Of a DNA stretch of 48,483 nt, positions 841-13,208 are shown one piece after another; position 1 is the stretch's first letter, and each line of letters starts with the position of its first letter. Source of the stretch: Chthoniobacterales bacterium (GTDB lineage Bacteria > Verrucomicrobiota > Verrucomicrobiia > Chthoniobacterales > Chthoniobacteraceae); the NCBI GenBank assembly GCA_041743065.1, contig JBGTNO010000018.1, forward strand, positions 1-48,483, in the 5' to 3' direction. The position numbers and the translations under genes were made by a program. The notes under the pieces are model-generated. The model was not told the origin of the DNA and searched no databases. It saw only the letters and a list, made by a program, of their open reading frames with translations.

Positions 841-853
841 ATAGCGTTTCCCT

Positions 854-926: not shown

Positions 927-934
927 ATTTCAGA

Positions 935-1022: not shown

Positions 1023-1023
1023 A

Positions 1024-1099: not shown

Positions 1100-1108
1100 A
1101 TTTTCAGA

Positions 1109-1183: not shown

Positions 1184-1188
1184 ATTTA

Positions 1189-1263: not shown

Positions 1264-1272
1264 ATTTTCATT

Positions 1273-1337
1273 TGCTCCCGTGGCCGAGCAGAACAGAGGC
1301 ATCCGTCTTCTAAACGGAACAACGCAGGTGCAATTGC
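1273..1337 (+). pseudogene. 3'-truncated tRNA-Arg(UCU)-like unit
   Basis: 5' acceptor strand GCTCCCG; D arm GCC-(12 nt)-GGC; anticodon arm TCCGT-CTTCTAA-ACGGA; T-like hairpin CGCAG-GTGCAA-TTGCG. No complementary 3' strand before the next unit. Confidence 0.4.
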
Positions 1338-1416
1338 GGCTCCAGCCGCTATGCAATTTCCGCTCCGCGCCATGAGGGGGTGTGCTATCGCACCGGGCGT
1401 TCCTGCCGGGAGTGCC
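1338..1416 (+). pseudogene. degenerate tRNA-like unit, anticodon not assignable
   Basis: 3' end CGGGAGT-G-CCA pairs 6/7 with GCTCCAG (1338-1344) and 7/7 with GCTCCCG (1273-1279). Internal arms are poorly formed. Confidence 0.3.
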
Positions 1417-1431
1417 ATTTCAAAATTCCAA

Positions 1432-1506
1432 TTCCTCTCAATGCACAAAGTGTGCAGCCCGCCTGTTAAGCGGTGTGAGCCTGGTGCGATTCCAGGGGGA
1501 GGAGCC
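1432..1506 (+). tRNA. tRNA-Asn(GUU)
   Basis: Acceptor TCCTCTC/GGGAGGA; D arm TGCA-CAAAGTG-TGCA; anticodon loop CTGTTAA; T arm CCTGG-TGCGATT-CCAGG; G73-CCA. Confidence 0.8.
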
Positions 1507-1510
1507 ATTT

Positions 1511-1598
1511 TGGACAGTCAACCGGACCAGCGTGCCGGCGCCGGCCTGAACCCGGATGGAGCCGCAAGGCTTGAGGAGCATGTCCTCGGCTGTCCGCC
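1511..1598 (+). tRNA. tRNA-Ser(UGA), class II, C33
   Basis: Acceptor GGACAGT/GCTGTCC; anticodon stem CCGG/CCGG with loop CCTGAAC; variable arm AGCC-GCAA-GGCT; T arm TGAGG-AGCATGT-CCTCG. G73 is followed by CCC, not CCA. Confidence 0.65.
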
Positions 1599-1601
1599 CT
1601 T

Positions 1602-1725
1602 TTCCCGCGGTGTAACAGGCACACCTCGCGATTTCATAAATCGCAGATCTGGGTGCGATTGCCGCTTTAGGTTCGAAAGTAATTCAGGGGGGCTAACTCG
1701 CGTTGGCCGGTTCCCGGCGGGATCC
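1602..1725 (+). ncRNA. oversized (124 nt) tRNA-like unit with CAU anticodon arm
   Basis: Anticodon arm GCGAT-TTCATAA-ATCGC; T-like arm around TGCGATT with a G.G closing pair. 3' end GGCGGGA-T-CCA (1715-1725) pairs 6/7 with TCCCGCG (1602-1608). Confidence 0.35.
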
Positions 1726-1732
1726 AATTTCT

Positions 1733-1795
1733 CGCCCGCATGGTGCAAAAGCAGCACGTCTGGTTCTCAGCCAGAATGCTATGCGCGGAAGCGCT
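1733..1795 (+). pseudogene. tRNA-Glu(CUC)-like 5' body without own 3' acceptor strand
   Basis: GCCCGCA; D arm GTGC-AAAAGCA-GCAC; anticodon arm TCTGG-TTCTCAG-CCAGA; then GCGC-GGAA-GCGC hairpin in place of a T arm. Confidence 0.4.
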
Positions 1796-1869
1796 CACCT
1801 GCAACGCGGAGCGGTGACTGCATGGCGGCAGGAGCCGCAACACTCGGAGCATTACCAGGTGCGGGTGCC
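1796..1869 (+). ncRNA. anticodon-less tRNA-like RNA
   Basis: Acceptor ACCTGCA/TGCGGGT (7 bp); D arm GCGG-AGCGGTGA-CTGC; T arm CTCGG-AGCATTA-CCAGG; G73-CCC. The anticodon position holds GCGGC-AGGA-GCCGC (5 bp plus tetraloop). Confidence 0.45.
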
Positions 1870-1874
1870 CCTTT

Positions 1875-1948
1875 CCCCTCCATAGCTCAAAAGCAGAGCA
1901 CCCGGCCGATAACCGGGCGACCGGGGAGCATTACCTCGTGGAGGGACC
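1875..1948 (+). tRNA. tRNA-Ile(GAU), C33
   Basis: Acceptor CCCTCCA/TGGAGGG; D arm GCTC-AAAAGCA-GAGC; anticodon arm CCCGG-CCGATAA-CCGGG; T arm CGGGG-AGCATTA-CCTCG; A73-CCA. Confidence 0.8.
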
Positions 1949-1952
1949 ACTC

Positions 1953-2027
1953 TGGCTGCGTAGCTGAGAGAGATTAGCGCCTCGCTGAAGACGAGGAGAG
2001 TCCGGCGCGATACCGGACGCAGCCACC
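1953..2027 (+). tRNA. tRNA-Phe(GAA)
   Basis: Acceptor GGCTGCG/CGCAGCC; anticodon arm CCTCG-CTGAAGA-CGAGG; T arm TCCGG-CGCGATA-CCGGA; A73-CCA. Confidence 0.8.
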
Positions 2028-2036
2028 ATTTTTCAT

Positions 2037-2111
2037 CGCGTCATTGGTGTAACAGCAAGCACGGCGGTCTTCCAAACCGCGGGCGTCGGGGCAGCACCGG
2101 CATGGCGCACC
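2037..2111 (+). tRNA. tRNA-Gly(UCC)
   Basis: Acceptor GCGTCAT/ATGGCGC; D arm GTGT-AACAGCAA-GCAC; anticodon arm GCGGT-CTTCCAA-ACCGC; T arm GTCGG-GGCAGCA-CCGGC; A73-CCA. Confidence 0.8.
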
Positions 2112-2120
2112 ATTTTTCGA

Positions 2121-2197
2121 TTCCTCCGTGGCAGAGGTCAGCAATGCACTCCTCTCGTACAGGAGATCATGCCGGGGCAGCGCCGGCCGGAGGATCC
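2121..2197 (+). tRNA. tRNA-Thr(CGU)
   Basis: Acceptor TCCTCCG/CGGAGGA; anticodon arm CTCCT-CTCGTAC-AGGAG; T arm GCCGG-GGCAGCG-CCGGC; U73-CCA. Confidence 0.8.
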
Positions 2198-2204
2198 ATT
2201 TTAG

Positions 2205-2280
2205 TGGAGGTCGTGATGTAACAGCCAGCATTCGATCCTGTGAAGATCGCTGAGCGGGGGCAGCACCCGTCGACCTCCCC
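2205..2280 (+). tRNA. tRNA-His(GUG) with encoded G-1
   Basis: G-1 (2205) lies opposite C73 (2277). Acceptor GAGGTCG/CGACCTC; D arm ATGT-AACAGCCA-GCAT; anticodon arm CGATC-CTGTGAA-GATCG; T arm GCGGG-GGCAGCA-CCCGT; CCA. Confidence 0.8.
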
Positions 2281-2290
2281 ACTTTCATAA

Positions 2291-2366
2291 GCGCGCACAA
2301 GGCAAAGTCGTCGAACCGGCGGTCTGCAAAACCGCTTTACCCGGTGCGAGTCCGGGGTGCGCGTCC
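2291..2366 (+). tRNA. tRNA-Cys(GCA)
   Basis: Acceptor CGCGCAC/GTGCGCG; anticodon arm GCGGT-CTGCAAA-ACCGC; T arm CCCGG-TGCGAGT-CCGGG; U73-CCA. Confidence 0.75.
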
Positions 2367-2371
2367 ACTTT

Positions 2372-2442
2372 TGGGGCCATCACTGAAGAGCAGGATGGCG
2401 CATTCGCATTGCGTTGATCGGGGTGCAATTCCCCGTGGCTCC
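2372..2442 (+). tRNA. tRNA-Ala(CGC)
   Basis: Acceptor GGGGCCA/TGGCTCC with G3.U70; anticodon arm GCGCA-TTCGCAT-TGCGT; T arm CGGGG-TGCAATT-CCCCG; A73; no CCA. D stem is weak. Confidence 0.65.
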
Positions 2443-2451
2443 AGTTTTTTA

Positions 2452-2526
2452 TCGGGCACGAGGAAGACAGCAATCCGCGCCGTTCGGATCGGCGAGACAC
2501 TCGGGGCAGCACCGAGGTGCCCGACC
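2452..2526 (+). tRNA. tRNA-Pro(CGG)
   Basis: Acceptor CGGGCAC/GTGCCCG (same as 1189-1263); anticodon arm CGCCG-TTCGGAT-CGGCG; T arm CTCGG-GGCAGCA-CCGAG; A73-CCA. Confidence 0.8.
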
Positions 2527-2538
2527 ACTTTTCGAAAA

Positions 2539-2610
2539 CTCCGCCAAAGCGTAGGCAGCGACGCACCCGGTCGGTAACCGGGAGAGGCCGGTGCATGCCC
2601 GGCTGGCGGA
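2539..2610 (+). tRNA. tRNA-Thr(GGU), C33
   Basis: Acceptor TCCGCCA/TGGCGGA; D arm GCGT-AGGCAGCG-ACGC; anticodon arm CCCGG-TCGGTAA-CCGGG; T arm GCCGG-TGCATGC-CCGGC. U73 is followed by CGC. Confidence 0.7.
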
Positions 2611-2623
2611 TCGCTTTTCAGAA

Positions 2624-2761
2624 TCCCGGGGAAGAGCACCGGTCGCTCGTCAGCCTCAGAAGCTGGAGGCAGTTGGTTCGATTGCCAGCGTCTTCCGACG
2701 CTGCCCTTTGGGCTGTGCTGTCGCACAGGCTGTCTCGCCACTCGCTCCAACCCCCGGAACC
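2624..2761 (+). ncRNA. oversized (138 nt) tRNA-like unit with CAG anticodon arm
   Basis: D arm GAGC-ACCGGTC-GCTC; anticodon arm TCAGC-CTCAGAA-GCTGG; T arm GTTGG-TTCGATTG-CCAGC; then hairpins GCGTC-TTCC-GACGC and TGTGC-TGTC-GCACA. 3' end CCCCGGA-A-CCA pairs 6/7 with CCCGGGG (2624-2630). Confidence 0.35.
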
Positions 2762-2767
2762 ACTTTT

Positions 2768-2843
2768 ACGCTCCGTAGCATAACGAGCAGTGCGGCGGTC
2801 TCATAAGCCGTCAGGTGCTGGTGCGATTCCAGCCGGAGCGACC
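2768..2843 (+). tRNA. tRNA-Met/Ile2-type (CAU)
   Basis: Acceptor CGCTCCG/CGGAGCG; D arm GCAT-AACGAGCA-GTGC; anticodon arm GCGGT-CTCATAA-GCCGT; T arm GCTGG-TGCGATT-CCAGC; A73-CCA. Confidence 0.8.
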
Positions 2844-2849
2844 ATCTTT

Positions 2850-2941
2850 GGGAAGTTAAAGCGGACAAGCGAGCCGCCGCCGGTTGGAAGCCGGACAGAC
2901 CTCGACTTCGAGGTTGTGGAGCATGCCCACTGACTTCCGCC
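2850..2941 (+). tRNA. tRNA-Ser(GGA), class II
   Basis: Acceptor GGAAGTT/GACTTCC; D arm GCGG-(9 nt)-CCGC; anticodon loop TTGGAAG; variable arm ACCTCG-ACTT-CGAGGT; T arm GTGG-AGCATGC-CCAC; G73-CCA. Confidence 0.75.
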
Positions 2942-2946
2942 ATTCT

Positions 2947-3088
2947 TGGGTCGCAAGCATTGCAGTGATGCAGCGGTTTGACGCTCCGGCGTCCATGCTG
3001 TCAGTGCTCCGCGCCTTTGGAGAGGGGCGCTGCGCGCGCCCTGCATTCTTAAACCGCAGAGCGCGGGGCAGCACCGTGGCGACCCACC
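2947..3088 (+). ncRNA. oversized (142 nt) tRNA-like unit, no clean anticodon loop
   Basis: GGGTCGC (2947-2953) pairs with GCGACCC-A-CCA (3078-3088). D arm GCAT-TGCAGTG-ATGC; T arm CGCGG-GGCAGCA-CCGTG (3061-3077). The interior holds hairpins GACGC-TCCG-GCGTC and GCGCC-(10 nt)-GGCGC. Confidence 0.3.
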
Positions 3089-3093
3089 ATTCT

Positions 3094-3236
3094 TGGAAGC
3101 TGAACCGGACAGCCGAGCGCAGCGAGACAGCCAGCCTAACTTCCTTTCAAAACAATGCGGGCAACCGTGCCGGGACTGTTTCGAAAACAGATCGTTCCGC
3201 CTTGCGGAATGGGGAGCATGCCCTCCGGCTTCCGCC
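3094..3236 (+). tRNA. oversized unit containing a class II tRNA-Ser(CGA)-like body
   Basis: From ~3155: D arm CGG-(9 nt)-CCG; anticodon stem CTGT/ACAG with loop TTCGAAA; variable arm TTCCG-CCTTG-CGGAA; T arm GGGG-AGCATGC-CCTC; G73-CCA. The only complementary 5' strand (GGAAGCT) sits 54 nt upstream at 3094-3100. Confidence 0.45.
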
Positions 3237-3244
3237 ACTTTTTT

Positions 3245-3321
3245 CGCCAGCGTGGATGGACAAGAAATCTCACCGCTTTTGTAAAGCGGAGGATGCGGGA
3301 GCGTTACCCGCCGCTGGCTCC
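3245..3321 (+). tRNA. tRNA-Thr(UGU)
   Basis: Acceptor GCCAGCG/CGCTGGC; anticodon arm CCGCT-TTTGTAA-AGCGG; T arm GCGGG-AGCGTTA-CCCGC; U73-CCA. Confidence 0.75.
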
Positions 3322-3329
3322 ACTTCCAA

Positions 3330-3403
3330 TTGCCCCGTGATGTAACAGCAGCATAACCGGCTCTGACCCGGTTCGCGTTGGTGCGAATCCAGCCGGGGCA
3401 GCC
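3330..3403 (+). tRNA. tRNA-Gln(CUG)
   Basis: Acceptor TGCCCCG/CGGGGCA; D arm ATGT-AACAGCA-GCAT; anticodon arm ACCGG-CTCTGAC-CCGGT; T arm GTTGG-TGCGAAT-CCAGC; G73-CCA. Confidence 0.8.
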
Positions 3404-3417
3404 ATTTCTCCAATTCC

Positions 3418-3501
3418 TGCGCCGGTAGATCATCAGCAGATCGCCGCACCGATCCGCCGCGGCGGACGGAGGCAGGCGGGGCAGCACCGCCCCGGCGCAC
3501 C
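3418..3501 (+). ncRNA. anticodon-less tRNA-like RNA with extended central helix
   Basis: Acceptor GCGCCGG/CCGGCGC; D arm GATC-ATCAGCA-GATC; T arm GGCGG-GGCAGCA-CCGCC; A73-CCA. The central arm is a long helix (3448-3468, one bulge) capped by tetraloop CGCG; there is no 7-nt loop. Confidence 0.45.
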
Positions 3502-3509
3502 ATCTTCAA

Positions 3510-3585
3510 CGCTCCCGTAGCTCAACGTATAGAGCACCGCGCTTCGAACGCGGAGGTTGCAGGCGAAATTCCTGCCGGGAGTGCC
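3510..3585 (+). tRNA. tRNA-Arg(UCG)
   Basis: Acceptor GCTCCCG/CGGGAGT; D arm GCTC-AACGTATA-GAGC; anticodon arm CCGCG-CTTCGAA-CGCGG; T arm GCAGG-CGAAATT-CCTGC; G73-CCA. Confidence 0.8.
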
Positions 3586-3592
3586 ACCCTTC

Positions 3593-3667
3593 TCCCGGCG
3601 TAGCCCAATGCAGAGACAACGAGTTCAGACCTCGTTCAGTGCGGGTGCAAGTCCTGCCGCCGGGACC
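3593..3667 (+). tRNA. tRNA with Leu anticodon CAG, class I architecture
   Basis: Acceptor CCCGGCG/CGCCGGG; anticodon arm ACGAG-TTCAGAC-CTCGT; 5-nt variable loop; T arm GCGGG-TGCAAGT-CCTGC; A73-CCA. Confidence 0.7.
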
Positions 3668-3672
3668 ATTTT

Positions 3673-3747
3673 CGCTCCCGTAGCCCAACGCAGCAGAGGC
3701 AGCCGGCTTAAACCCGGCCAAGTGTCGGTGCGAATCCGACCGGGAGC
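3673..3747 (+). tRNA. tRNA with Leu anticodon UAA, class I architecture
   Basis: Acceptor GCTCCCG/CGGGAGC; anticodon arm GCCGG-CTTAAAC-CCGGC; 5-nt variable loop; T arm GTCGG-TGCGAAT-CCGAC; A73; no CCA. Confidence 0.7.
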
Positions 3748-3755
3748 ACGAGTTA

Positions 3756-3830
3756 AGCCCGCGTAGTCCAACGCAGAGACATCCGCCTCAAAAACGGACC
3801 AGTGCAGGTGCAAGTCCTGCCGCGGGCACC
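3756..3830 (+). tRNA. tRNA with Leu anticodon CAA, class I architecture
   Basis: Acceptor GCCCGCG/CGCGGGC; D arm GTC-(8 nt)-GAC; loop CTCAAAA on stem TCCG/CGGA; T arm GCAGG-TGCAAGT-CCTGC; A73-CCA. Confidence 0.7.
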
Positions 3831-3832
3831 AA

Positions 3833-3923
3833 AGGAACGTGAACCGGACAAGCGAGCCGGGATTCTTTGCTAAGGAAATCGATCCGCGCTGCGGATTGGG
3901 GAGCATGCCCTCCGCGTTCCGCC
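3833..3923 (+). tRNA. tRNA-Ser(GCU), class II
   Basis: Acceptor GGAACGT/GCGTTCC; D arm CCGG-(9 nt)-CCGG; anticodon loop TTGCTAA; variable arm ATCCG-CGCTG-CGGAT; T arm GGGG-AGCATGC-CCTC; G73-CCA. Confidence 0.75.
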
Positions 3924-3936
3924 ATTTTCTCCGTAA

Positions 3937-4017
3937 CGACCTCTCGTGGTGTAAAGCAGCACGAACGTCCTATGCCCGTTGAACCTGAGACGCGGGTACG
4001 AGTCCTGGCGGGAGGTC
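3937..4017 (+). tRNA. atypical tRNA-like unit, possible UAU anticodon, C33
   Basis: 10-bp terminal helix GACCTCTCGT/GCGGGAGGTC; D arm GTGT-AAAGCA-GCAC; stem AACG/CGTT with loop CCTATGC; 12-nt variable region; T arm CGGG-TACGAGT-CCTG; no CCA. Confidence 0.4.
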
Positions 4018-4028
4018 TTTTCCTTTAC

Positions 4029-4104
4029 TGCCCGTGAATGCAAAGAGCCGAGCGCCTCGCCTTTCAAGTGAGACCTAGCCGGTGCGAGTCCGGCCACGGG
4101 TGCC
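4029..4104 (+). tRNA. tRNA-Glu(UUC)
   Basis: Acceptor GCCCGTG/CACGGGT; anticodon arm CTCGC-CTTTCAA-GTGAG; T arm GCCGG-TGCGAGT-CCGGC; G73-CCA. Confidence 0.75.
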
Positions 4105-4111
4105 ATTTTCA

Positions 4112-4187
4112 TGCTCGCGTAGCCCAACAGTAGAGGCACTGCGTCGAGAGCGCAGCCAGTGCGGGTGCGAATCCTGCCGCGAGCACC
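4112..4187 (+). tRNA. tRNA with Leu anticodon GAG, class I architecture, C33
   Basis: Acceptor GCTCGCG/CGCGAGC; anticodon arm CTGCG-TCGAGAG-CGCAG; 5-nt variable loop; T arm GCGGG-TGCGAAT-CCTGC; A73-CCA. Confidence 0.75.
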
Positions 4188-4194
4188 ATTTGAA

Positions 4195-4268
4195 GGGGCC
4201 GAAAGCATTAAAGTGATGCAACGGACTTTTAATCCGTCGAACGGGGAGCATTACCCCGGCGGCCCACC
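4195..4268 (+). tRNA. tRNA-Lys(UUU)
   Basis: Acceptor GGGCCGA/GCGGCCC (7:66 A.G); D arm GCAT-TAAAGTG-ATGC; anticodon arm ACGGA-CTTTTAA-TCCGT; T arm CGGGG-AGCATTA-CCCCG. A73 is followed by CCT. Confidence 0.7.
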
Positions 4269-4269
4269 T

Positions 4270-4343
4270 TTCCCGAGTCGTCTAATAGGAGGACGCCTGG
4301 CCTACACCCAGGAGTCGGGGGAGCATAACCTCCACGGGCGACC
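4270..4343 (+). tRNA. tRNA-Val(UAC)-like, C33, weak acceptor
   Basis: D arm GTC-(9 nt)-GAC; anticodon arm CCTGG-CCTACAC-CCAGG; T arm GGGGG-AGCATAA-CCTCC; A73-CCA. The 5' acceptor strand pairs only 4 bp. Confidence 0.55.
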
Positions 4344-4598
4344 ATCTTTCCACTGGACTCAGTTCCAGCAGCCGACCGGCATCGCCGGATCCGGTTCTGC
4401 ATATCGGGAGTCCAGTGTCTGGCAAATCGGCGCAAGCCGACTGGGTTCGACTCCCATCATACGGGTCCGTGACGGTGACCAGCCCGGACCCAGTCGGGGC
4501 AGCCGCGACGCAGCCTGCGCGGGAGAGCCATTGCACTTTCGCCCGTTGCCGAGCCGCGGTCGCCGTCACGGGCCACAACTTTCAACCAAGGAGGAAAC
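4344..4598 (+). other. structured non-coding leader between the array and the first CDS
   Basis: 9-bp helix ACTGGACTC (4351-4359)/GAGTCCAGT (4407-4415) enclosing two hairpins. TCGGC-GCAA-GCCGA hairpin, then a canonical T-arm-like TGGG-TTCGACT-CCCA (4441-4455). GGGTCC/GGACCC helix (4462-4490). The ...GGGAGAG-CCA motif ends at 4529. RBS AAGGAGG at 4587-4593. Confidence 0.4.
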
Positions 4599-5405
4599 AT
4601 GAACATCGAATACATCATCGGCGGCATCATGGTCGCCATTGCCATCGCAGTGGCGGTTCGCACCGTGCGTGCCCGCTACCGTCACGAATACGTCGTCGCC
4701 GAAGGTTCCGTCGCGCTGATCTACCACGAGGGCAAACTCGCCGGTCGATGGGACGCGGGCCGCCACGTCCGCTGGGGCCGCCATTACCGCGTCGATCTAA
4801 TCGACGTGCGTAAGACGCTGCTCCAGGTCCAGGGTCAGGATGTCCTCAGCGCCGACAATGTCGGCGTGAAGGTCAGCCTCGTGCTCACGACTCAGATCGT
4901 CGATCCAGTCAAGAACGTGCAGAGCGTGGACAACTACGTTCTGCATCTCTACAGCGCCGCGCAGTCGGCGGTTCGCGCCGTCGTTGCGGGCGTCGCGATG
5001 GACTCGCTGCTCAACCAGCGGGTCGCCATCAGCGGCCAGCTTCTCGAACTGCTGGCACCCCAGGCCGAGGAAATCGGCGTGAAGGTGCACGCAGTCGAAG
5101 TCCGCGACGTAATGCTGCCGGGCGACCTACGCCGCGCCTTCTCCGAAGTGCTGAAGGCGAAGCAGGAGGGCCAGGCAGCGCTGGAACGTGCCCGTGGCGA
5201 GTCGGCCGCACTCCGCAACCTTGCAAATGCGGCGCGTCTCATCGAGAGCCAGCCGGGCGTGGCAACGCTGCGCTTCCTGCAGACGCTCTCCGGCAACGAC
5301 GCAAAGCAGATGGTTGTGATGAGCGACATGTCTGCTTTCGCGCCAGTGTTCAAGGGCCGCTCCGGAAGTCGGTCGGCAACTGAAACCGAGTCGGAGGAAA
5401 CCTAA
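4599..5405 (+). CDS. SPFH/band-7 (slipin-like) membrane protein
   Basis: N-terminal hydrophobic helix, then an SPFH core (VDLIDVRK...QDVLSADNV...AVEVRDVMLP...KAKQEG). ATG preceded by AAGGAGG. Confidence 0.8.
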   Translation: MNIEYIIGGIMVAIAIAVAVRTVRARYRHEYVVAEGSVALIYHEGKLAGRWDAGRHVRWGRHYRVDLIDVRKTLLQVQGQDVLSADNVGVKVSLVLTTQIVDPVKNVQSVDNYVLHLYSAAQSAVRAVVAGVAMDSLLNQRVAISGQLLELLAPQAEEIGVKVHAVEVRDVMLPGDLRRAFSEVLKAKQEGQAALERARGESAALRNLANAARLIESQPGVATLRFLQTLSGNDAKQMVVMSDMSAFAPVFKGRSGSRSATETESEET

Positions 5406-5509
5406 GATGCGAGGGAGGAAGGCACGCCCCGGCGGGGATTCGTCTCCGCCGGGGTGATGCGGCCCCCAAGCAATCAACCCCAATCACCAACATAGAAAGG
5501 AGGTTCCCC

Positions 5510-6286
5510 ATGCATGGGAACGAAGTCCTCAAGCGCGTCCGCCACGCGCTCGCTCAGGTCGAGGCCGAGCGGAACGTGCGCGTGCTTTTCGCGTGCGAGA
5601 GCGGCAGTCGGGCGTGGGGCTTTGCCTCGCGTGACAGCGACTACGACGTGCGCTTCCTCTACGTCCACCGGCGAGACTGGTATCTTTCAGTCGAGGATCG
5701 GCGCGACGTCATCGAACAGCCCATCGCCGATGATCTCGACGTGAGCGGCTGGGAGCTGCGCAAGGCGCTGCGGCTGCTCCGCAAGAGCAATCCGCCGTTG
5801 CTTGAGTGGCTGAAGTCACCGGTCGTGTATCGTCACGATCCGGTCTTCGCCGCCGAGTTCGGCGCGCTGGCGGCGGAGTTCTATTCGCCACGGCGCTGCT
5901 TCGCGCATTACCTGCACATGGCCTTCGGCAACTGGCGCGACTATCTGCGCGGTCGCGAGGAAGTGAGTCTGAAGAAGTATCTCTACGTCTTCCGTCCGCT
6001 GCTCGCGTGCCGCTGGATCGAGCGTCAGCTCGGTCAGGTGCCGATGCTCTTCGCGCAACTCGTGGAGAGCGTGCTCGACGAAGCCGACGTGCGCGCCGCC
6101 CTCGCGGAACTCGTCGCGCGCAAGCAGGCCGGCGAGGAGCTGGCTATCGCGCCTTCGGTCGAAGCGCTTTCGCGTTTCATCGAGGACGAGCTGCCAAGGC
6201 TCGAGGCGCTCAACGAGCCAGACGATGCCAAGGGCGAAGTGGAGGAGCTGAACGGCTTCTTCCGCCGCTACGCGCTCGCGGCTTGA
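5510..6286 (+). CDS. Pol-beta-fold nucleotidyltransferase, RlaP/COG3541-like
   Basis: N-terminal motif LFACESGSRAWGFASRDSDYDVRFLY is typical of the RNA-ligase-associated Pol-beta NTase family. Good RBS (AAAGGAGG). Confidence 0.65.
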   Translation: MHGNEVLKRVRHALAQVEAERNVRVLFACESGSRAWGFASRDSDYDVRFLYVHRRDWYLSVEDRRDVIEQPIADDLDVSGWELRKALRLLRKSNPPLLEWLKSPVVYRHDPVFAAEFGALAAEFYSPRRCFAHYLHMAFGNWRDYLRGREEVSLKKYLYVFRPLLACRWIERQLGQVPMLFAQLVESVLDEADVRAALAELVARKQAGEELAIAPSVEALSRFIEDELPRLEALNEPDDAKGEVEELNGFFRRYALAA

Positions 6287-6500
6287 CCACGCAACTGACG
6301 CCGTCCGGAGCCATCCGTTCCGGGCGGCGTCCTCATTTTCCACGAATCCAAACCTCAACCCATCCACATCAATGCAATCACATAAATCCATCTCCAAGCC
6401 GGGAGTCTCGCTGAGGCTCTCGAACCAAACTCAATCAGTCCGCGACGACATCCGCTCCGGCTTTCTGCCGGTGCCACGCGCGCGGTCAAAAACATAAAGT

Positions 6501-7307
6501 ATGAACTCAAAAACGATTGCGAATCAGTTCGCCCGCATGGACGCACGGTTCCGTGTCGTTCGTCCAGATGACCTGCCGCGGCGGCGTCAGCGCACCGACT
6601 ACGCGCTCGATATTGTCACCGATAAGCAGGGCCAACTTTTCGAGATGCAGCTTAGCGCTGAACGCGAGGCACAGCTCGAAATCGACGTGCTTCAATGCGA
6701 GCATCACGACCGGCATTTGCTCCTGCTTGTGAAAACGCCGGAGGCGAAGGATCGCTTCCTGTGCGGACACGACGAGCGGGAGTGGTTTGTCGCCGCGGTG
6801 CCCGGCGGTGCGTCAAGCGTGGTGCAGGCGAAGGTCGCTCTGCAACCAAGTGGAGCACGAGCCGCCGCCGATAGCGCCGGGCTAAACCTGCGTCAGCGCA
6901 CCCGCCGGCACAACCGAGCCTTCATCCGTCAGGGTGAATGGTTCTTCGTGCCCGTGCCGGAACTGCGCGTGGATGAAAAGTTCATCCTGCGCAACGAGCC
7001 GATCAGTCGCGGCGGCGGAAAGCCGCACCTCGTCGCTGAGCTTCACCGCTCCGGTGGCGAGAAGGTGTGGGTCTGCTCGCGTTATCCGAACGGTCTGACC
7101 GAATCGGACTACAAGCGGACGCTCGCGGACAACCGCGAGGCGAAGCGCTGGGGCTGGCAGCAGCGCGTCCGCAATGCGGGCGTGTTTGCGCGCGGTACCG
7201 TGCGTCACCGCGACCACGCGACGATCACGCTGCACAAGTGGCACCAGGTCTGGATGAACACCGAGAACACGACTCGTCAAATGGCGAACGTCGCATTCCT
7301 CGACTGA
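6501..7307 (+). CDS. hypothetical protein, no recognisable domain
   Basis: 268-aa ORF with coding-like composition, located between the NTase and rtcB on the same strand. Confidence 0.55.
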   Translation: MNSKTIANQFARMDARFRVVRPDDLPRRRQRTDYALDIVTDKQGQLFEMQLSAEREAQLEIDVLQCEHHDRHLLLLVKTPEAKDRFLCGHDEREWFVAAVPGGASSVVQAKVALQPSGARAAADSAGLNLRQRTRRHNRAFIRQGEWFFVPVPELRVDEKFILRNEPISRGGGKPHLVAELHRSGGEKVWVCSRYPNGLTESDYKRTLADNREAKRWGWQQRVRNAGVFARGTVRHRDHATITLHKWHQVWMNTENTTRQMANVAFLD

Positions 7308-7443
7308 GGAATGGCTTCAACGCAGCCGGGGAGGGTGACAAGCCTTCCCCGGCTGCATCTTTTCGACATAAAGAACAGACACCGCTGCGCACTCGGAGTG
7401 TGTCCGCACACCGCGCTCCTACTTTTCAATACGAACCACATCC

Positions 7444-8838
7444 ATGAACAACCAAGACCTCATCCGTCTCGGCGTGCCGCAGGGCGACGCCTTGAAACTG
7501 TCTCACGAACACATGCGCCGCCTGTTTGCTGGTGGACTCGATCGCGAGCAGGTCGAGGCCGAGATCTGCGACATCGTCGCAGATCCGCCGGCTTTCTTCG
7601 CCGACGAACTGCGTGCACCGCTGGCTCGTGCCCTCTACCGGCCGGCTTTTACGCCGCGCGCGGAACTCGCGCCGTGGCGTCAGTGGGGCGAGGGCCTTGA
7701 AGCCGAGGCGGTGAAGCAGATGGCGAATGCATGTGCGCTGCCGGTCGCGGTGGCGGGCGCGCTCATGCCGGATGCGCACGTCGGCTACGGCCTGCCGATC
7801 GGCGGCGTGCTCGCGACGGATAACGCGGTGATTCCTTACGCCGTCGGCGTGGACATCGGCTGCCGTATGAAAATGACCGTCTTCGATCGGAAGGTGAACA
7901 CGATTTCCGGGCAGAAGGATCGTCTCGCGAACATCATCGAGAGCGAGACGCGCTTTGGCGTGGGCTGTGAGTTCAAGCAGCGCCGCGAGCATGACGTCAT
8001 GGATGAAGACTGGGGCGTTTCCCCGGTCACACAGCGTCTCCGTGACAAGGCTTGGGCTCAGCTCGGAACGAGCGGAAGCGGCAATCACTTTGTGGAATTC
8101 GGAACTTTCACGGTGTCGGAGCCGGTGCTTGGACTGGATCCTGGAGAATACGTGGCGCTGCTCTCGCACAGCGGGTCCCGCGGCACCGGCGCTCAGGTTT
8201 GCCAGCATTACAGCCGCCTCGCTATGGATCGTCACGCGGATCTGCCAAAAGAGCTGAAGCATCTCGCGTGGCTCTCGCTCGATGAAGCCGCTGGCCAGGA
8301 ATACTGGGCCGCAATGAATCTGATGGGGCTCTACGCCGCGGCGAACCACGCGCTCATCCACAGGCACATCGCACGCAAACTCGGCGCGCATGTGGTCCTC
8401 GACATCGAGAACCACCACAACTTTGCGTGGAAAGAGCGCCATGAAATCGCCGGCGTGGAACGTGAAGTGATCGTCCACCGCAAAGGCGCGACCCCGGCGG
8501 GCGCTGGAGTGCTGGGTATCATCCCTGGCTCGATGGCGTCGCCCGGCTACGTCGTACGCGGCAAAGGCGAGCCGGAATCGCTGACCAGCGCTTCCCACGG
8601 AGCCGGCCGCGTGATGAGTCGGACGAAGGCGATGCAGTCCTTCACGTGGAGTGCCGTAAAGAAACTCCTCTCCGAGCGCGACGTGACGCTGCTCTCCGCG
8701 GGCCTCGATGAAGTGCCCGGCGTTGACAAGGACCTCGCACCAGTGATGGCCGCGCAAACCGACTTGGTCGAAGTGCTCGGTCGATTCGACCCGCGCCTGG
8801 TGAAAATGTGCCCGAGCGGCGAACGTGCGGAGGACTGA
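7444..8838 (+). CDS. rtcB: RNA 3'-phosphate/2',3'-cyclic phosphate ligase RtcB
   Basis: Motifs GSGNHFVEFG, HSGSRGTG, NHHNFAWKE, HRKGATPA, SASHGAGR. Confidence 0.9.
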   Translation: MNNQDLIRLGVPQGDALKLSHEHMRRLFAGGLDREQVEAEICDIVADPPAFFADELRAPLARALYRPAFTPRAELAPWRQWGEGLEAEAVKQMANACALPVAVAGALMPDAHVGYGLPIGGVLATDNAVIPYAVGVDIGCRMKMTVFDRKVNTISGQKDRLANIIESETRFGVGCEFKQRREHDVMDEDWGVSPVTQRLRDKAWAQLGTSGSGNHFVEFGTFTVSEPVLGLDPGEYVALLSHSGSRGTGAQVCQHYSRLAMDRHADLPKELKHLAWLSLDEAAGQEYWAAMNLMGLYAAANHALIHRHIARKLGAHVVLDIENHHNFAWKERHEIAGVEREVIVHRKGATPAGAGVLGIIPGSMASPGYVVRGKGEPESLTSASHGAGRVMSRTKAMQSFTWSAVKKLLSERDVTLLSAGLDEVPGVDKDLAPVMAAQTDLVEVLGRFDPRLVKMCPSGERAED

Positions 8839-9426
8839 ATGATGAGTGACGTACTGAACAAAACCACAGTGCTGGTGCTGAATCGAAACTGGCAGGCGAT
8901 CCACGTCAAAACGCCAACCCAGGCATTTTGCATGATGGCCGCCGATGTGGCGACCGCCCTCGACATCGAGGACACCGGCGGCATGCGTCCAGTGAAGTGG
9001 ACCGAGTGGCTCACTCTGCCGGTGCGCGCGGACGATAACTCCGTGCGCACCGTGCATGGGGCCGTGCGTGTTCCCACGGTCCTCGTGCTGGCGAACTACG
9101 CGAAGGTGCCGAAGCGGCGCCCGAAGTTCTCCGCGAAGAACATCTGGCAGCGGGACGGTGCGACCTGCCAGTACACGGGGCGCAAACTCGCGCCCCACGA
9201 AGGCAACATCGATCACGTAGTGCCTCGTTCACGCGGCGGTAGAACCGCTTGGGAGAACTGCGTTCTCGCCCACCGCGAGATCAACTCGCGAAAGGCAGAC
9301 AGGTTGCCCGAAGAAATCGGCCTGCGTCTGCGTCGGCAACCCGCCGCGCCACGAGAACTGCCTGCCACCATGCATATTCGCAATGCGCACAGCGTACGCG
9401 ACTGGGAGCATTTTCTGAAGTCGTGA
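8839..9426 (+). CDS. HNH endonuclease
   Basis: CQYTG...IDHVVPRSRGG...NCVLAHREINSRK (HNH/His-Me finger). The start abuts the rtcB stop codon. Confidence 0.8.
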   Translation: MMSDVLNKTTVLVLNRNWQAIHVKTPTQAFCMMAADVATALDIEDTGGMRPVKWTEWLTLPVRADDNSVRTVHGAVRVPTVLVLANYAKVPKRRPKFSAKNIWQRDGATCQYTGRKLAPHEGNIDHVVPRSRGGRTAWENCVLAHREINSRKADRLPEEIGLRLRRQPAAPRELPATMHIRNAHSVRDWEHFLKS

Positions 9427-9674
9427 TCCGGAGAAGCTTGCGCCCAGACCTGCGCAAATCGCCGAAGTTCAATAATTGTGGCGATATAAGAGGAAAAGGA
9501 ATAGTCCTTCTGAATCTGTGAAACGACTGTAGGGGTTGGGGGAGAAGCTGCGATCTGCGGCATATACTGAACGGACCCTAACCCGAGAAGCCTTCCCAGG
9601 CTTGTCGCTTGTGCCGGATCTCTCAACGATGCACGCTCGTTCCGACAGTGATGATAATCCGATCAATTCGCGTA

Positions 9675-10945
9675 ATGGAACGTCTGGCCCTCGCTGCTTT
9701 GATGCTCTTTGCCGTGATGCCTGATGCGGCCGTTGCCGAAACGAGAATCGCGGTAGCAGCGATCAACGAGCTGGGCCTCGAACTCCAACGGAACCTTCCG
9801 GGCGGGAACGAAAATCTGTGCGTTTCCCCGTACTCGATCCAGAATGCTTTGGCCATGACGTATGCCGGGGCGGATGGCGAGACCCGCACTGAGATGGGGA
9901 AGGTCCTTCACTTCCCAGAGGAGGAGGCTGCGCTGCACGATTCTTTCGACGCCTTGCGAGGTGAGATCGAGAAATCATCGGCTGAAACGGTCAAGCTGGC
10001 GCAGAAGTCGAAGAAATGGGGGGGGCCAGCAGTCCTATCGAGATCCATCTGGCCAACGCACTTTTTGGGCAGACCGGTTACGATTTCCGGGAATCCTTTC
10101 TAGAGCTTGTGAAGGAACACTATGGCGCGGGGTTGGGAAGACTCGACTTTGCGGGTGATGGTGGCAAGGCGGCGTCGGAGCGGATCAATCGATGGGTCGA
10201 ATTGCAGACCAAGGGGCGCATTGCCAACCTCCTTGAGGATTTGGACCCGCAAAACCGCCTGATTCTGGTCAATGCGATCTATTTCAAAGGACCGTGGGCC
10301 AGTGAGTTCCCCGCCACGGCCACGAAACCGGCGCCGTTTCACGTGGATGGCGGAACGCCGGTGAATGTGCCGACGATGAAGCTCCAAAGTCAGTACGGTT
10401 ACGCGAAGCGGGATGGTTACGTGGCGCTGAGCATCCCTTACGTCGGCGACGAATTGCATTTTCTGATTCTCTTGCCCGATGACCTCAAGGGACTCCCTGC
10501 CCTGGAGGCGCGGCTCACCGCGGAGATCGTGGCCGATTGTGCCGAGTTGGAAGCGGCAGAAGTGGAGGTATGGCTCCCGCGTTTCAAGCTCGAGCCGCCG
10601 ACGCTGGATTTGAAACAGTTCCTACAGGAAATCGGGATGAAAGCAGCGTTTGATCAGCCACCTGGCAGCGCCAACTTTGATCGGCTCGCCCCGCGGCGGG
10701 CCGACGATTACCTTTTCATTTCGGAAGTTTCGCACAAGACGTTCATTGCGGTAGACGAGCGTGGCACCGAAGCGGCGGCCGCGACTGCCGTTCGCATGCT
10801 GGCGTTCGGAGCGCCGCCCGAGCCACCCAGACCCATCGTCGTGAGGATCAATCGTCCTTTTTACTACGCCATTCAGCACCGACCCACCGGAGCCTGCCTC
10901 TTCATGGGGAGAGTGGTGGATCCGCGGCCGCCATCAACGCACTGA
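9675..10945 (+). CDS. secreted serpin, reading frame interrupted at a G8 tract
   Basis: Signal peptide MERLALAALMLFAVM; SPYSIQNALAMTYAGA; FKGPWASEF; C-terminal NRPFYYAIQH...FMGRVVDP. Frame changes at G8 (10018-10025); one extra G restores a single ORF. Confidence 0.8.
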
Positions 10946-10949
10946 TGCG

Positions 10950-13208
10950 ATGATGAACGTGCCTCGGGAGCTTTTAATTGTGTGTGCCTGCGCTGCTCTG
11001 TGCAGTGTCAGCGTAGCAGGGGCTGAGTCAGAGTCCGATCTTAGGGAGTGGGTACGGAAGGCCGTGGCTGACCCTCGCGTGTTCGTAATGAATCCGCCCG
11101 CGGAACTCGGCGCATACGCCGGGCTTTCGCCGGAACAGTTGCAGCAACGGATGACAGGTATTTTCCGTGATGGGAGCGTCCTGATGCTCTACCCGAACGG
11201 GCTTCCGTTTCAGTTCGAGTCCCGTTCCGACCATAAGGCCGATGGTCCGCGGAAAGTCTGGCATCCAAGCGGACAAATTGCGGTGGATGAAACCTGGAAT
11301 TCGGAAAAACTGGTGACGGGAAAATACTTCGACGCGGATGGGAAACTGCTCGCCGAAGTTCAGAACGGAAGCGGCACGAGGATCGACTTCTCTCCGGAGA
11401 GCGTGGAGAGCGGGCTCGTCCTTCAAGGCAAGGCGGAATACGCACACGGAGTGAAACACGGACGCGAGATCCGATTTCGCGATCACGTTCGTGGCGAGAT
11501 CGACTCGGAAACATTTTTCGAGCAGGGGCAGAAGCACGGAACGGAAAAGCGATGGATGCCAAATGGCCAGTTGAACTTCCAGATCGTCTGGTCCGATGGG
11601 CAGAAAAACGGCGAAGAGCTTTACTGGCACTCCAATGGTCTTCTCCAGTCGCTGGCGCACCACGAGAATGGGAAGCAGGTTGGAGTCAGTTGCCGATTCT
11701 ACCAAAATGGGCAGAAGTCCGAGGAAATCTTTCGGGAGGGCGAACGCTGGCGCTCAGAGTCCAGGTGGTATCCGGAAGGTGCCTGGATGCTTTACAAGGA
11801 GTTTGCTGCCGACTCCGGAAGGACGGCTCGCGCGTGGAGTTTCGATCGTGACGGGAAGGGAAATGGCCGGATAGAGAACGGCGCGGGCAGTCTCGTCGTG
11901 CTCGCGGAACCGATGGATGATTTTCGCCCCGCGGAGGAGTATCGGCTGGAGACTTACGAAGAGGGCCGGACGAAGCAGGGAGCGGCATTCCCAACTTTGA
12001 AGTGGACTTCGATGGCAGGTAAGGGTTCCGCGCGAAAAGTTGAATTCACGACGGCCGTGGCGGGTCCGCCATGGAAGAGCGTAACGGCCGAGATCCAACT
12101 GCCGGAGGGATTCCACTCGGATGGCCCCCTGAGATTCGAGTCGGAGGATCTTTCGACCGACCGTCCGAAATTCGGGCCGGTGGACATTACCTTTCCCGGC
12201 GGCGATTCGTGGACCGGCGTCCTTTACGCGATCACCACGGCAGCAACGGATGGAGGATCCTATCACATTAAACAGATCCTCCTGGAGAGCCGTCCAAAAC
12301 GAGAACGTTCGGAGCCGAAGTCCACGCCGAAGTCTAAACCCGAACCGCGTGAGTCCCGCTCATGGAATCGCGACAAGCGCTCGATCGAAGTGGGCGGACA
12401 GGAGCTGCGGCGCCGCGACGCCATAACCGGTTGGCACTTGAGCAAACAGGAATGGCTACTCTTTCGCGCCCCGCCTCTCCTCGTGCATCAACGCGGTCCG
12501 GAAGAGCCGTGGCGTGTCGTTCGCGAGATACCGTTTGGGCCCGCAGGAATGGCGATTCTCCCAGACAAATCGTTGATTTTGTGGGGCACCGAGCCGACGG
12601 GAACACCCGAAGACGGAATCCCCTACCATGTCGAGCGATCCGTGGACAGCGGGGGCACCTGGAAACCGTTCGATATTCCGAAGATGGACTATCTACTAGG
12701 CATCGCCTGCCCAAACCGCGTTCTGGTCGTCACTGGTGTGCGCTTGCCCAAAGACGGTGTGCCGGAGGGGAAGGACTGGTTCCAGCTCCCACGCTCGTTT
12801 TTCATATCGAGCGACGACGGAAAGCATTTCGTCGAGCAGGTGGGTCCCAGCTTCGTGGCGATCGGGACGATCGAATCGCGCTCGATCGCACCCGACGGCC
12901 GCCGGCGCGCCTACATCGAGGTCGCGAGCTGGCTCGATACGTCCTACGCCGTTTATGTGGCGGACGGACCGGACGAGATCCCCCGCGTCGTGCAGAGCAC
13001 CGGAGTTCAGCCCGCAGTAGTCTGGTCGGGGAACTCGCGAATCCTGGCGCTCCAAGCGAACGGGAGATATTTCGCCAGCTACGATTTTCAGACTGGCCAA
13101 TTCGAGGAGTTTACCCAAGGGTCCGCGTCCCCGACTTTGGGAAAGGAACGGGAGGCGGCGGACGCGGTGCATGAGAAGATTGCCGCGCTGCTCGAAACCA
13201 ACCGGTAG
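10950..13208 (+). CDS. secreted MORN-variant repeat protein with C-terminal BNR/beta-propeller-like region
   Basis: Signal peptide; repeated W.PNGQ/W.SNG...G motifs (YwqK/MORN_2-like); Asp-box SVDSGGTW. Confidence 0.6.
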   Translation: MMNVPRELLIVCACAALCSVSVAGAESESDLREWVRKAVADPRVFVMNPPAELGAYAGLSPEQLQQRMTGIFRDGSVLMLYPNGLPFQFESRSDHKADGPRKVWHPSGQIAVDETWNSEKLVTGKYFDADGKLLAEVQNGSGTRIDFSPESVESGLVLQGKAEYAHGVKHGREIRFRDHVRGEIDSETFFEQGQKHGTEKRWMPNGQLNFQIVWSDGQKNGEELYWHSNGLLQSLAHHENGKQVGVSCRFYQNGQKSEEIFREGERWRSESRWYPEGAWMLYKEFAADSGRTARAWSFDRDGKGNGRIENGAGSLVVLAEPMDDFRPAEEYRLETYEEGRTKQGAAFPTLKWTSMAGKGSARKVEFTTAVAGPPWKSVTAEIQLPEGFHSDGPLRFESEDLSTDRPKFGPVDITFPGGDSWTGVLYAITTAATDGGSYHIKQILLESRPKRERSEPKSTPKSKPEPRESRSWNRDKRSIEVGGQELRRRDAITGWHLSKQEWLLFRAPPLLVHQRGPEEPWRVVREIPFGPAGMAILPDKSLILWGTEPTGTPEDGIPYHVERSVDSGGTWKPFDIPKMDYLLGIACPNRVLVVTGVRLPKDGVPEGKDWFQLPRSFFISSDDGKHFVEQVGPSFVAIGTIESRSIAPDGRRRAYIEVASWLDTSYAVYVADGPDEIPRVVQSTGVQPAVVWSGNSRILALQANGRYFASYDFQTGQFEEFTQGSASPTLGKEREAADAVHEKIAALLETNR

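Follow-up and report, generated by a model that had tools for sequence, protein, structure and literature searches.

A long tRNA array that is probably one conserved unit with an RtcB-centred RNA-repair gene set in a Chthoniobacter-like verrucomicrobium

Long tRNA arrays (L-arrays) were defined by Santamaria-Gomez et al. (2021, PMC8421152), who reported them in Verrucomicrobia, Planctomycetes and other phyla and found that they spread by horizontal gene transfer. In cyanobacteria, the arrays often contain rtcB, dpsA and an HNH gene or are linked to them, and in Anabaena PCC 7120 the array, rtcB and the HNH gene all8564 are co-induced by translation inhibitors, with a sponge role suggested for the operonic tRNAs (PMC8421152). 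The regulon of the repressor TrcR also takes in a slipin (Band-7), GNAT acetyltransferases and an AAA ATPase (PMC10272220). So far, L-array function has been studied experimentally almost only in Anabaena. Here we describe a locus in a Chthoniobacterales bacterium (Verrucomicrobiota; Chthoniobacteraceae; assembly GCA_041743065.1, contig JBGTNO010000018.1) where, in the 48,483 nt that we analyzed and call the window, positions 231–9426 are probably one conserved unit in which an L-array is joined to an RNA-repair gene set centred on the RNA ligase RtcB.

The protein genes of this locus also have described counterparts. Burroughs and Aravind (2016), as cited in 10.1101/312249, predicted systems of RtcB, Band-7 and a tRNA termed b7a-tRNA for its association with Band-7, and RlaP was named by the same authors in that year for its association with RNA ligases, as cited in PMC12776372. 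RlaP adds one or two nucleotides, as nucleoside monophosphates, to the 3′-OH of damaged RNA and has been proposed to refill nucleotides cut from the anticodon loop by ribotoxins such as RloC; its 3′-OH product is not an RtcB substrate (PMC12776372). In jumbo phages, self-encoded tRNAs together with RtcB or Rnl ligases and RlaP have been discussed as acting against host tRNA nucleases (Iyer et al. 2021, PMC7824862). Among coding sequences in mycobacterial and phage arrays, HNH genes are the commonest, and they have been proposed to drive array diversity (PMC5966550). The original prediction for this stretch of DNA held that no such locus had been described, which cannot be maintained because array–rtcB–HNH linkage is published (PMC8421152, PMC10272220) and RtcB/Band-7/RlaP systems with a b7a-tRNA were predicted in 2016.

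The principal features of the unit, all on the plus strand, are as follows.

231–334, plus strand: structured leader RNA of about 100 nt (covariance model R1, 101.5 bits, one copy in the window)
378–4344, plus strand: long tRNA array of about 30 units, 17 of them confident (ARAGORN, Rfam, T-arm motif counts)
4599–5405, plus strand: Band-7/SPFH (slipin-like) membrane protein (Pfam, E = 2e-28)
5510–6286, plus strand: RlaP, a Pol-beta nucleotidyltransferase (Pfam PF10127, E = 4e-92)
6501–7307, plus strand: UNK, an array-associated protein of 268 amino acids (AlphaFold2 model; no family match)
7444–8838, plus strand: RtcB, a 3′-phosphate/5′-OH RNA ligase (Pfam PF01139, E = 1e-81)
8839–9426, plus strand: HNH endonuclease (Pfam HNH, E = 1.7e-8)

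Five plus-strand genes had been predicted to follow the array, and all five open reading frames (ORFs) lie where they were placed, in the order Band-7/SPFH, RlaP, UNK, RtcB and HNH, with intergenic gaps of 104, 214, 136 and 0 nt. The HNH gene does start directly at the end of rtcB, its ATG abutting the rtcB TGA (TGAATG), and with its ribosome-binding GGAGG inside rtcB it is predicted to be translationally coupled to rtcB. The G+C content of the window is about 60%, and that of the region is not deviant.

To examine how far this arrangement is conserved, we picked loci either through UNK or through the leader. When one genome per species was scanned, 566 UNK relatives came up, and the best 80 of these 566 loci were kept for mapping of tRNAs and of the five window proteins; all 80 are from bacteria of the Planctomycetes–Verrucomicrobia–Chlamydiae group except for a few contigs that are probably mis-binned. 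The verrucomicrobial subset comprises 47 UNK loci, of which 24 are well covered, with at least 5 kb on both flanks. At least three tRNAs are found in 36 of the 47 loci. In the 686 kb that these loci span, all 355 tRNAs (about one per 1.9 kb) share the strand of UNK, and the opposite strand has none. Among the 24 well-covered loci, arrays are present in 20, RtcB in 18, HNH in 17, RlaP in nine (each time together with RtcB) and Band-7 in five. Gene order differs between loci, and UNK is often within the array. The architecture of the unit is repeated in L001 and L208, the second of which is filed as viral by IMG/VR. Thus, the gene-neighbourhood search bears out a conserved adjacency of array and repair genes, and the further proposal that the two form one unit is upheld by the conserved same-strand arrays, by the leader that heads them and by a covarying box before rtcB. 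In L001 (3690–13000), genes for a Ro/TROVE protein, an AAA ATPase and a GNAT acetyltransferase stand between Band-7 and RlaP, and a Ser/Thr kinase gene comes next.

The leader block is near-invariant between loci whose proteins share only 65–76% identity. By model R1, each of 32 UNK-selected loci has a single copy, without exception on the plus strand and 5′ of the first array tRNA, and in 30 of these 32 no tRNA precedes the leader. In the model-fitted alignment, 94.6% of the cells pair as compared with only 29–49% in slid-control alignments, and 16 of the 24 pairs carry double (compensatory) changes, a number reached in none of 500 shuffles. A second sample of 120 metagenome contigs was chosen on the leader sequence alone, independently of UNK, and in it 447 same-strand tRNAs lie downstream of the leader, six lie upstream and one is on the opposite strand. 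A comparison of window positions 1–4700 with 4227 Rfam covariance models gave no relevant match for the leader at E up to 1, and the leader was not found in planctomycete, cyanobacterial, actinobacterial or other viral loci.

Two other readings of the leader block were tried. The window and three close loci read a Shine-Dalgarno sequence followed by GTG-MPETPKxPP-stop in the conserved block, as a leader-peptide attenuator might, and we rejected this reading because elsewhere codon 3 is a stop or the stop is missing, yet the RNA structure persists. Within the array, at 1606–1627 on the plus strand, the 5′ part of the leader (237–256) recurs as an inverted copy of 20 nt with 90% complementarity; this copy was considered as a second long-range partner of the leader, but it is present in the window only and not in 15 relatives, and is probably a window-specific remnant. 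As a separate observation, the leader motif (44–70 bits) is followed by at least 6 kb free of tRNAs in L090, L100, L107, L128, L146 and L156, two of which carry a ParB_N/RepB gene pair about 1.5 kb downstream; the leader may not be exclusive to tRNA arrays.

The 3′ strand of the leader has a complementary partner 7 kb away, between UNK and rtcB.

305–326, plus strand: 3′ strand of the leader (GGCTGCGGTGTTCGTTCTTTTT), complementary to 7368–7389
7368–7389, plus strand: distal box (ATAAAGAACAGACACCGCTGCG), complementary to the leader 3′ strand and 55 nt upstream of the rtcB ATG

The leader/box duplex of the window matches at 17 of 22 positions (−25.5 kcal/mol), and the offset of the box from UNK is the same as in L004. 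A homologous box is present in 17 loci, after UNK and 60–100 nt upstream of RtcB, HNH or Band-7. The boxes were located by a complement search, for which the chance of a 22-mer with at most two mismatches is about 2e-6 per locus, and their position is constant. In relatives the duplex is 20–26 bp long, with lineage-specific compensatory changes mirrored on both sides: the match is 22/22 in L008 and L056 and 21/22 in L004 and L032, and lineage-specific swaps are seen in L032 and L022. Double changes affect 18 of 28 pairs, and none of 500 shuffles reaches this. From this pattern, we infer a long-range RNA stem that would bracket the tRNAs, Band-7, RlaP and UNK in the manner of rRNA-operon processing stems. 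An invertible DNA segment between the boxes was also considered and rejected, as the inverted orientation was found in no locus.

We next turn to the array itself. ARAGORN called 12 tRNAs in it and the Rfam tRNA model added five above its gathering score, which makes 17 confident units, and counting T-arm motif classes gave about 33. With 17 confident and about 33 probable genes in 4 kb, it is an L-array as PMC8421152 uses the term, for over 20 closely packed tRNA genes on one strand. Relaxed ARAGORN made 25 plus-strand calls on the array versus 1–5 in coding controls of equal length; ARAGORN at 70% thresholds returned noise (about 30 calls per 4.7-kb coding control) and was excluded from the inventory. 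Anticodons could be assigned to about 16 amino acids. The relaxed ARAGORN calls and the inventory yielded no anticodon for Asp, Glu, His or Trp, so calling the array a complete alternative tRNA set, as was first done, is an overstatement. An NCCA followed by a T-rich spacer is the signature of 24 units. Non-CCA tails, to which the original prediction had drawn attention, do exist in about six units, including a Lys-UUU unit with CCT, but they are a minority and most units encode CCA. The suggestion that the nucleotidyltransferase restores such tails is therefore disfavoured, as is also the case from RlaP biochemistry, which consists in the addition of one or two nucleotides to damaged RNA (PMC12776372). 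The 3′ halves of the array units group into few repeat families. Two Pro-UGG type units on the plus strand, at 1185–1268 and 2448–2531, share 86% identity along 84 nt, suggesting that one arose recently by duplication within the array.

The elbows of the array tRNAs are deviant. Among the approximately 33 units in the window, the T-loop is GTGCGA, with G at position 55, in 13, GAGCAT in 12, GGCAGCAC in seven and the canonical GTTCRA in only one. The D-loops have no GG pair, the four Leu units are 75–76 nt long and so have no long variable arm, and about 16 of the 33 units score under the Rfam gathering score. The same features recur in relatives: across the verrucomicrobial UNK loci, 211 of 360 tRNAs carry GTGCRA (G55) and 59 a canonical T-loop, 60 of 63 array Leu tRNAs are without a long variable arm, and in the leader-selected set GTGCRA is found in 276 of 454 tRNAs. 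The tRNAs outside the arrays in these verrucomicrobial loci are canonical, including Leu tRNAs of 85 nt, and distinct from the array tRNAs, which suggests a separate housekeeping tRNA set beside the arrays. Other arrays have canonical T-loops as well, in 23 of 24 tRNAs in Nostoc, 32 of 32 in Mycolicibacterium, 390 of 422 on IMG/VR contigs and 26 of 30 in a planctomycete. The deviant T-loop and D-loop are, as far as these genes tell, a lineage-wide property of verrucomicrobial array tRNAs. Canonical T-loop/D-loop contacts are used by RNase P, the CCA-adding enzyme, TruB/TrmA and the ribosome. A literature search on such elbow-variant array tRNAs found no paper. If functional, these tRNAs would be informative about the limits of elbow remodelling and about a possible escape, by such remodelling, from elbow- or T-loop-directed toxins.

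These deviations bring in a different explanation, in which the array RNAs are tRNA mimics, whether decoys or sponges that draw off tRNA-targeting nucleases, sensors, or cofactors of repair proteins, and the protein genes serve or exploit the mimics and not the housekeeping tRNAs. That 32 of about 33 window units have no canonical T-loop, that the D-loops have lost GG, that G55 is so widespread in arrays whose neighbouring tRNAs are canonical, that nearly all array Leu tRNAs have no long variable arm and that the Rfam scores are low are all as expected for mimics, and precedents are the tRNA-like RtcB/Band-7 cofactor that has been proposed (10.1101/312249) and the sponge role suggested in Anabaena (PMC8421152). 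A decoy or cofactor role thus has real weight because the elbows are deviant. However, features that translation requires are retained in the array RNAs, namely acceptor stems, anticodon loops of 7 nt with sensible anticodons covering about 16 amino acids, discriminator bases and an encoded CCA; the arrays that accompany UNK in viral contigs, as well as those of Nostoc and Mycolicibacterium, are canonical; and the coordinated change of T-loop and D-loop suggests a remodelled folded elbow and not decay. Taking both sides together, we consider it unlikely that the array consists of mimics, and we keep tRNA supply as the preferred role of the array.

The last two array units and an element beyond them form a group of tRNA-like elements 140–400 nt upstream of Band-7.

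4196–4268, plus strand: tRNA-Lys(UUU)-like array unit with a CCT tail (Rfam, 35.8 bits)
4270–4344, plus strand: weak tRNA-Val(UAC)-like array unit, the last of the array (Rfam, 23.7 bits)
4360–4460, plus strand: structured RNA conserved before Band-7; its T-arm is canonical (GGGTTCGACTCCC at 4443–4455)

The Lys-like and Val-like units were also called by relaxed ARAGORN, and a Lys tRNA is in the same place before Band-7 in L007 and L001. The element at 4360–4460 has the only other canonical T-arm of the region. It is kept upstream of Band-7 in 11 loci, where both the T-arm and a helix (GCAGCC/GG..TTCTGC) show compensatory changes, and in several loci the element has complete D, anticodon and T arms. 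It is probably the predicted b7a-tRNA. The Band-7 protein itself has an N-terminal transmembrane helix at residues 5–23 (Kyte-Doolittle 2.16), and its gene has the Shine-Dalgarno sequence AAGGAGG.

The two repair enzymes keep their catalytic motifs. RlaP matches its profile with 308.8 bits over positions 3–249 of 249, its catalytic GS...DxD motif (GS...DYD) is intact (ESGSRAWGFASRDSDYDV), its gene has the Shine-Dalgarno sequence AAAGGAGG, and the association with an RNA ligase for which the family was named is seen here as well, with RtcB 1.1 kb downstream on the same strand. The RtcB domain scores 275.6 bits against a cut-off of 27. Its motifs DIGC, GSGNHF, HSGSRG, HHN and SHGAGR align with Pyrococcus horikoshii RtcB (PH1602), and all metal-ligand positions and the His position that accepts guanosine monophosphate are covered (P. 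horikoshii D95, C98, N202-H203, H234, H329 and H404). The HNH protein is 30–35% identical over 84–87% of its length to two array-linked HNH proteins, one encoded within a 32-tRNA array on the Mycolicibacterium plasmid pCBMA213_1 and the other on a Nostoc plasmid, directly before a 24-tRNA array, and therefore it is a member of the array-linked HNH family found in other phyla.

UNK had no match in Pfam, NCBIfam, PADLOC, PHROGs or the PDB by sequence and profile, and when 47 diverse members of the UNK family were compared with Pfam, the sole match was a WD40 fusion in one member. The AlphaFold2 model is confident and mostly beta (predicted local distance difference test 86.9, predicted TM-score 0.80); Foldseek found nothing for it in the PDB or BFVD at E up to 0.001, with TM-scores of at most 0.20. 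The family is large and strongly conserved: clustering at 90% identity gives more than 5000 homologues, the named ones being Verrucomicrobiota, and clustering at 50% identity gives 2161 clusters. The residues invariant across bacteria and viral contigs are D91, E92, R143-Q-G-E-W-F-F149, H176, H236, D238, H239, E255 and a C-terminal FLD, and they suggest a metal-dependent enzyme. Relatives of UNK are also present on IMG/VR-classified viral contigs of 40–530 kb (GC 0.27–0.66), within same-strand arrays: among 54 such loci (E up to 1e-7), 31 have at least three tRNAs, and 426 tRNAs are on the UNK strand versus 11 on the opposite strand. One of these contigs carries 13 tRNAs, UNK, RtcB and then a phosphoesterase, and another has nicotinamide adenine dinucleotide (NAD)-salvage genes and a GIY-YIG homing endonuclease followed by UNK and 20 tRNAs. 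UNK had no match in PLSDB plasmids, GenBank cultured phage genomes or PHROGs. We also tried to read its function from its planctomycete neighbours and gave this up, as those neighbours are unrelated (CHAP, TPR, hydrolase and others). Because UNK lies within arrays in both bacteria and viral contigs, it is the protein most consistently tied to the arrays, more so than RtcB. Since it is conserved and encoded between rlaP and rtcB, it is also an obvious candidate for the unsolved end-healing step between RlaP and RtcB.

The viral contigs and the HNH gene raise the question of whether the locus is instead a mobile or viral element, with HNH a homing endonuclease that spreads the array and the 20-nt boxes DNA recombination or terminal repeats or duplicated operators. 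HNH genes are the commonest coding sequences in mycobacterial and phage arrays (PMC5966550), the neighbours of UNK relatives in IMG/VR arrays include a GIY-YIG homing endonuclease and NAD-salvage genes such as large phages typically carry, L208 with its window-like architecture is filed as viral, and the counts of G-U and A-C in the leader/box duplex do not favour RNA pairing. Against this, no integrase, transposase or phage structural gene lies beside the unit in the window, GenBank phages and PLSDB plasmids gave no match, the bracketed segment is never inverted, the tRNAs are all on the RtcB/HNH strand, the leader itself has RNA-type covariation and the G+C content is not deviant. We therefore judge a mobile or viral element to be an improbable explanation.

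The explanation that we favour, and hold to be probable, is a stress-inducible tRNA supply-and-repair unit in which a verrucomicrobial L-array is fused to an RtcB-centred repair set. Transcription would start upstream of the leader and run through the approximately 30 supernumerary tRNA-like genes, the Band-7-associated RNA, Band-7, RlaP and UNK, where the box of about 20 nt would pair with the leader 3′ strand to form a processing stem that delimits the tRNA precursor from the rtcB–HNH messenger. Expression of the unit would respond to impaired translation or damaged tRNA, such as ribotoxins, toxin RNases or antibiotics may cause. The array would raise or replace the tRNA pool, RlaP would fill in nucleotides lost at broken ends and RtcB would reseal 2′,3′-cyclic-phosphate/5′-OH breaks, while Band-7 and its tRNA-like RNA would be a cofactor or scaffold and UNK a metal-dependent enzyme acting on tRNA ends or precursors. 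The sequences themselves show the gene identities, the conserved adjacency, the coherent strand and the covariation of leader and box; we infer co-transcription, stress induction, the processing stem and all of these biochemical roles, drawing for expression and biochemistry on homologues, on the Anabaena work and on the RlaP work. Experimental handles are available in a cultured relative, Chthoniobacter flavus, in UNK, in the leader motif and in the long-range stem, which is testable.

Several observations weigh against such a unit. The closest relative found, L013, has 84% DNA identity over UNK–RtcB–HNH but no array, Band-7 or RlaP within 10 kb upstream, and because this relative keeps only UNK–RtcB–HNH, the unit is separable. 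L009 and L007 have the module but only one ARAGORN-detected tRNA in the 10 kb examined, a few contigs have non-tRNA genes after the leader, and UNK stands solitary among unrelated genes in 29 of 30 planctomycete loci. Nearly all array tRNAs have neither a canonical T-loop nor the D-loop GG, which makes their translational use uncertain. The leader/box duplex of the window is imperfect at 17/22, with an energy rank of 8 of 9612, and a G-U to A-C ratio of 4:3 is compatible both with RNA pairing and with a DNA inverted repeat or duplicated operator. In addition, strong hairpins with T-rich tails follow Band-7, RlaP and UNK and could terminate transcription. A GC hairpin of 13–15 bp comes directly after the stop codon in each intergenic gap, with its structure conserved in relatives, and two of these hairpins are listed here.

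6297–6331, plus strand: 15-bp GC-rich hairpin after RlaP, terminator-like or a 3′ stabiliser, conserved as a structure in L004, L006, L007, L001 and L005
7322–7356, plus strand: 15-bp GC-rich hairpin after UNK, structure conserved in relatives

These intergenic hairpins may be terminators, attenuators or 3′ stabilisers. Read as terminators, and taken with L013, L009 and L007, the variable gene order and content and the spread of L-arrays by horizontal gene transfer (PMC8421152), they would fit an array and repair genes that are mere neighbours, independently regulated, which travel together on a transferred island or were juxtaposed by rearrangement. Yet the association holds across verrucomicrobial families although the genes are reordered, the protein genes and all 355 tRNAs share a strand, UNK lies within arrays, tRNAs and protein genes alike are enclosed by the leader/box pair, Anabaena co-regulates the same functional set, and the association recurs on viral contigs. 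Mere proximity therefore seems to us a poor and improbable account of the locus, and we retain the supply-and-repair unit.

A bolder form of this reading, which we offer as speculative and think unlikely, combines three parts: a distinct tRNA class with a remodelled elbow that has G55 where pseudouridine is near-universal, a leader-gated tRNA–mRNA precursor with an rRNA-like stem, and UNK as an array-dedicated enzyme shared by bacteria and giant phages. In that case, UNK would be a candidate for the missing end-healing activity that passes RlaP products on to RtcB, or else for an array-specific processing nuclease.

The surroundings of the unit contain further genes. A plasmid or phage origin was sought by DNA identity and dropped, as megablast gave no match. 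A second RNA-repair system (Hen1/Pnkp) lies 10 kb downstream of rtcB, at 19737–25308 on the plus strand, and the Anabaena hen1-pnkP genes are also induced late in translational stress (PMC8421152). Directly after the unit, a serpin gene is split into overlapping ORFs at 9609–10103 and 10016–10945 (plus strand; profile positions 2–87 and 80–370), which indicates a probable frameshift or pseudogene. On the minus strand, a helicase-like gene at 27228–30974 (DUF4011 and AAA_11) overlaps the start of the ORF at 25507–27474, and the two may be one split gene. A group II intron catalytic domain (47544–47699, minus strand, Rfam 46.6 bits) is near the window end. The remaining neighbours are listed below.

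10950–13208, plus strand: MORN-repeat protein of 752 amino acids, after the serpin
19737–21137, plus strand: Hen1 (Hen1_L, E = 3e-112, plus a methyltransferase domain)
20888–22756, plus strand: HEAT-repeat ORF, whose called start overlaps the end of Hen1
22741–25308, plus strand: Pnkp, with kinase, phosphoesterase and ligase domains (E = 2e-189)
25507–27474, minus strand: ORF with AAA_12, an MTES_1575 restriction-endonuclease-like domain and a WGR domain
30971–32239, minus strand: SprT/M48-like peptidase, upstream of the helicase-like gene

In our literature search, UNK, the leader RNA, the leader/box covariation and the elbow-variant tRNAs were not described in anything found, and we now compare the locus with the systems that are. 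The cyanobacterial L-arrays, that of Anabaena in particular, share with the window a long same-strand array, an HNH protein of the same family, rtcB and a slipin. In Anabaena these genes are scattered and tied together by a repressor, whereas in the window they are fused in one string, and the tandem TrcR direct repeats (TGTWNWWNWNNWGTANYNWA) had no match in the window even with one mismatch. The window, in the phylum Verrucomicrobiota, adds the leader RNA with its complementary box, RlaP and UNK, and its tRNA elbows are non-canonical, unlike those of the Nostoc array. The Ro/TROVE, AAA ATPase and GNAT genes of L001 mirror members of the Anabaena TrcR regulon (AAA ATPase, GNATs).

Compared with the RtcB/Band-7/b7a-tRNA/RlaP systems, as cited in 10.1101/312249 and PMC12776372, the window is alike in combining RtcB and Band-7 with an adjacent tRNA-like RNA, often with RlaP, and it differs in having about 30 tRNA-like genes instead of one, headed by a leader, as well as UNK and HNH. 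The Ro/TROVE gene in the L001 string matches the interchange of Ro/YrlA with Band-7/b7a-tRNA reported there. The E. coli and Salmonella rtcBA and rsr-yrlBA-rtcBA operons are likewise centred on RtcB repair and include a tRNA-like RNA, which in their case is YrlA, and they are induced by tRNA damage. The window is without RtcA, RtcR and Ro (no TROVE (Ro60/Rsr) domain was found in the ten window ORFs scanned, 1351–13921) and has Band-7, RlaP, UNK, HNH and dozens of tRNA genes instead. The tRNA sets of jumbo phages resemble the locus in combining their own tRNAs with a ligase and RlaP, and UNK is found in arrays, sometimes with RtcB, on large IMG/VR contigs; the context of the window, however, is chromosome-like, with a LysR regulator, the serpin, the MORN-repeat protein and the helicase nearby. 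Finally, the leader/box pair is like the 16S and 23S rRNA processing stems in that covarying complementary segments lie kilobases apart around stable-RNA genes; the window stem is deduced from sequence only, also encloses protein genes and could be read at the level of DNA.

From these comparisons, we conclude that tRNA arrays linked to RtcB and HNH, and RtcB/Band-7/RlaP systems with a tRNA-like RNA, are known in outline, and that the fully fused verrucomicrobial string, the array-tracking UNK, the leader with its covarying partner and the elbow-variant tRNAs are new. The same set of array, RtcB, HNH and slipin that was found in Anabaena is hard-wired here in another phylum, and this strengthens the supply-and-repair view of L-arrays.

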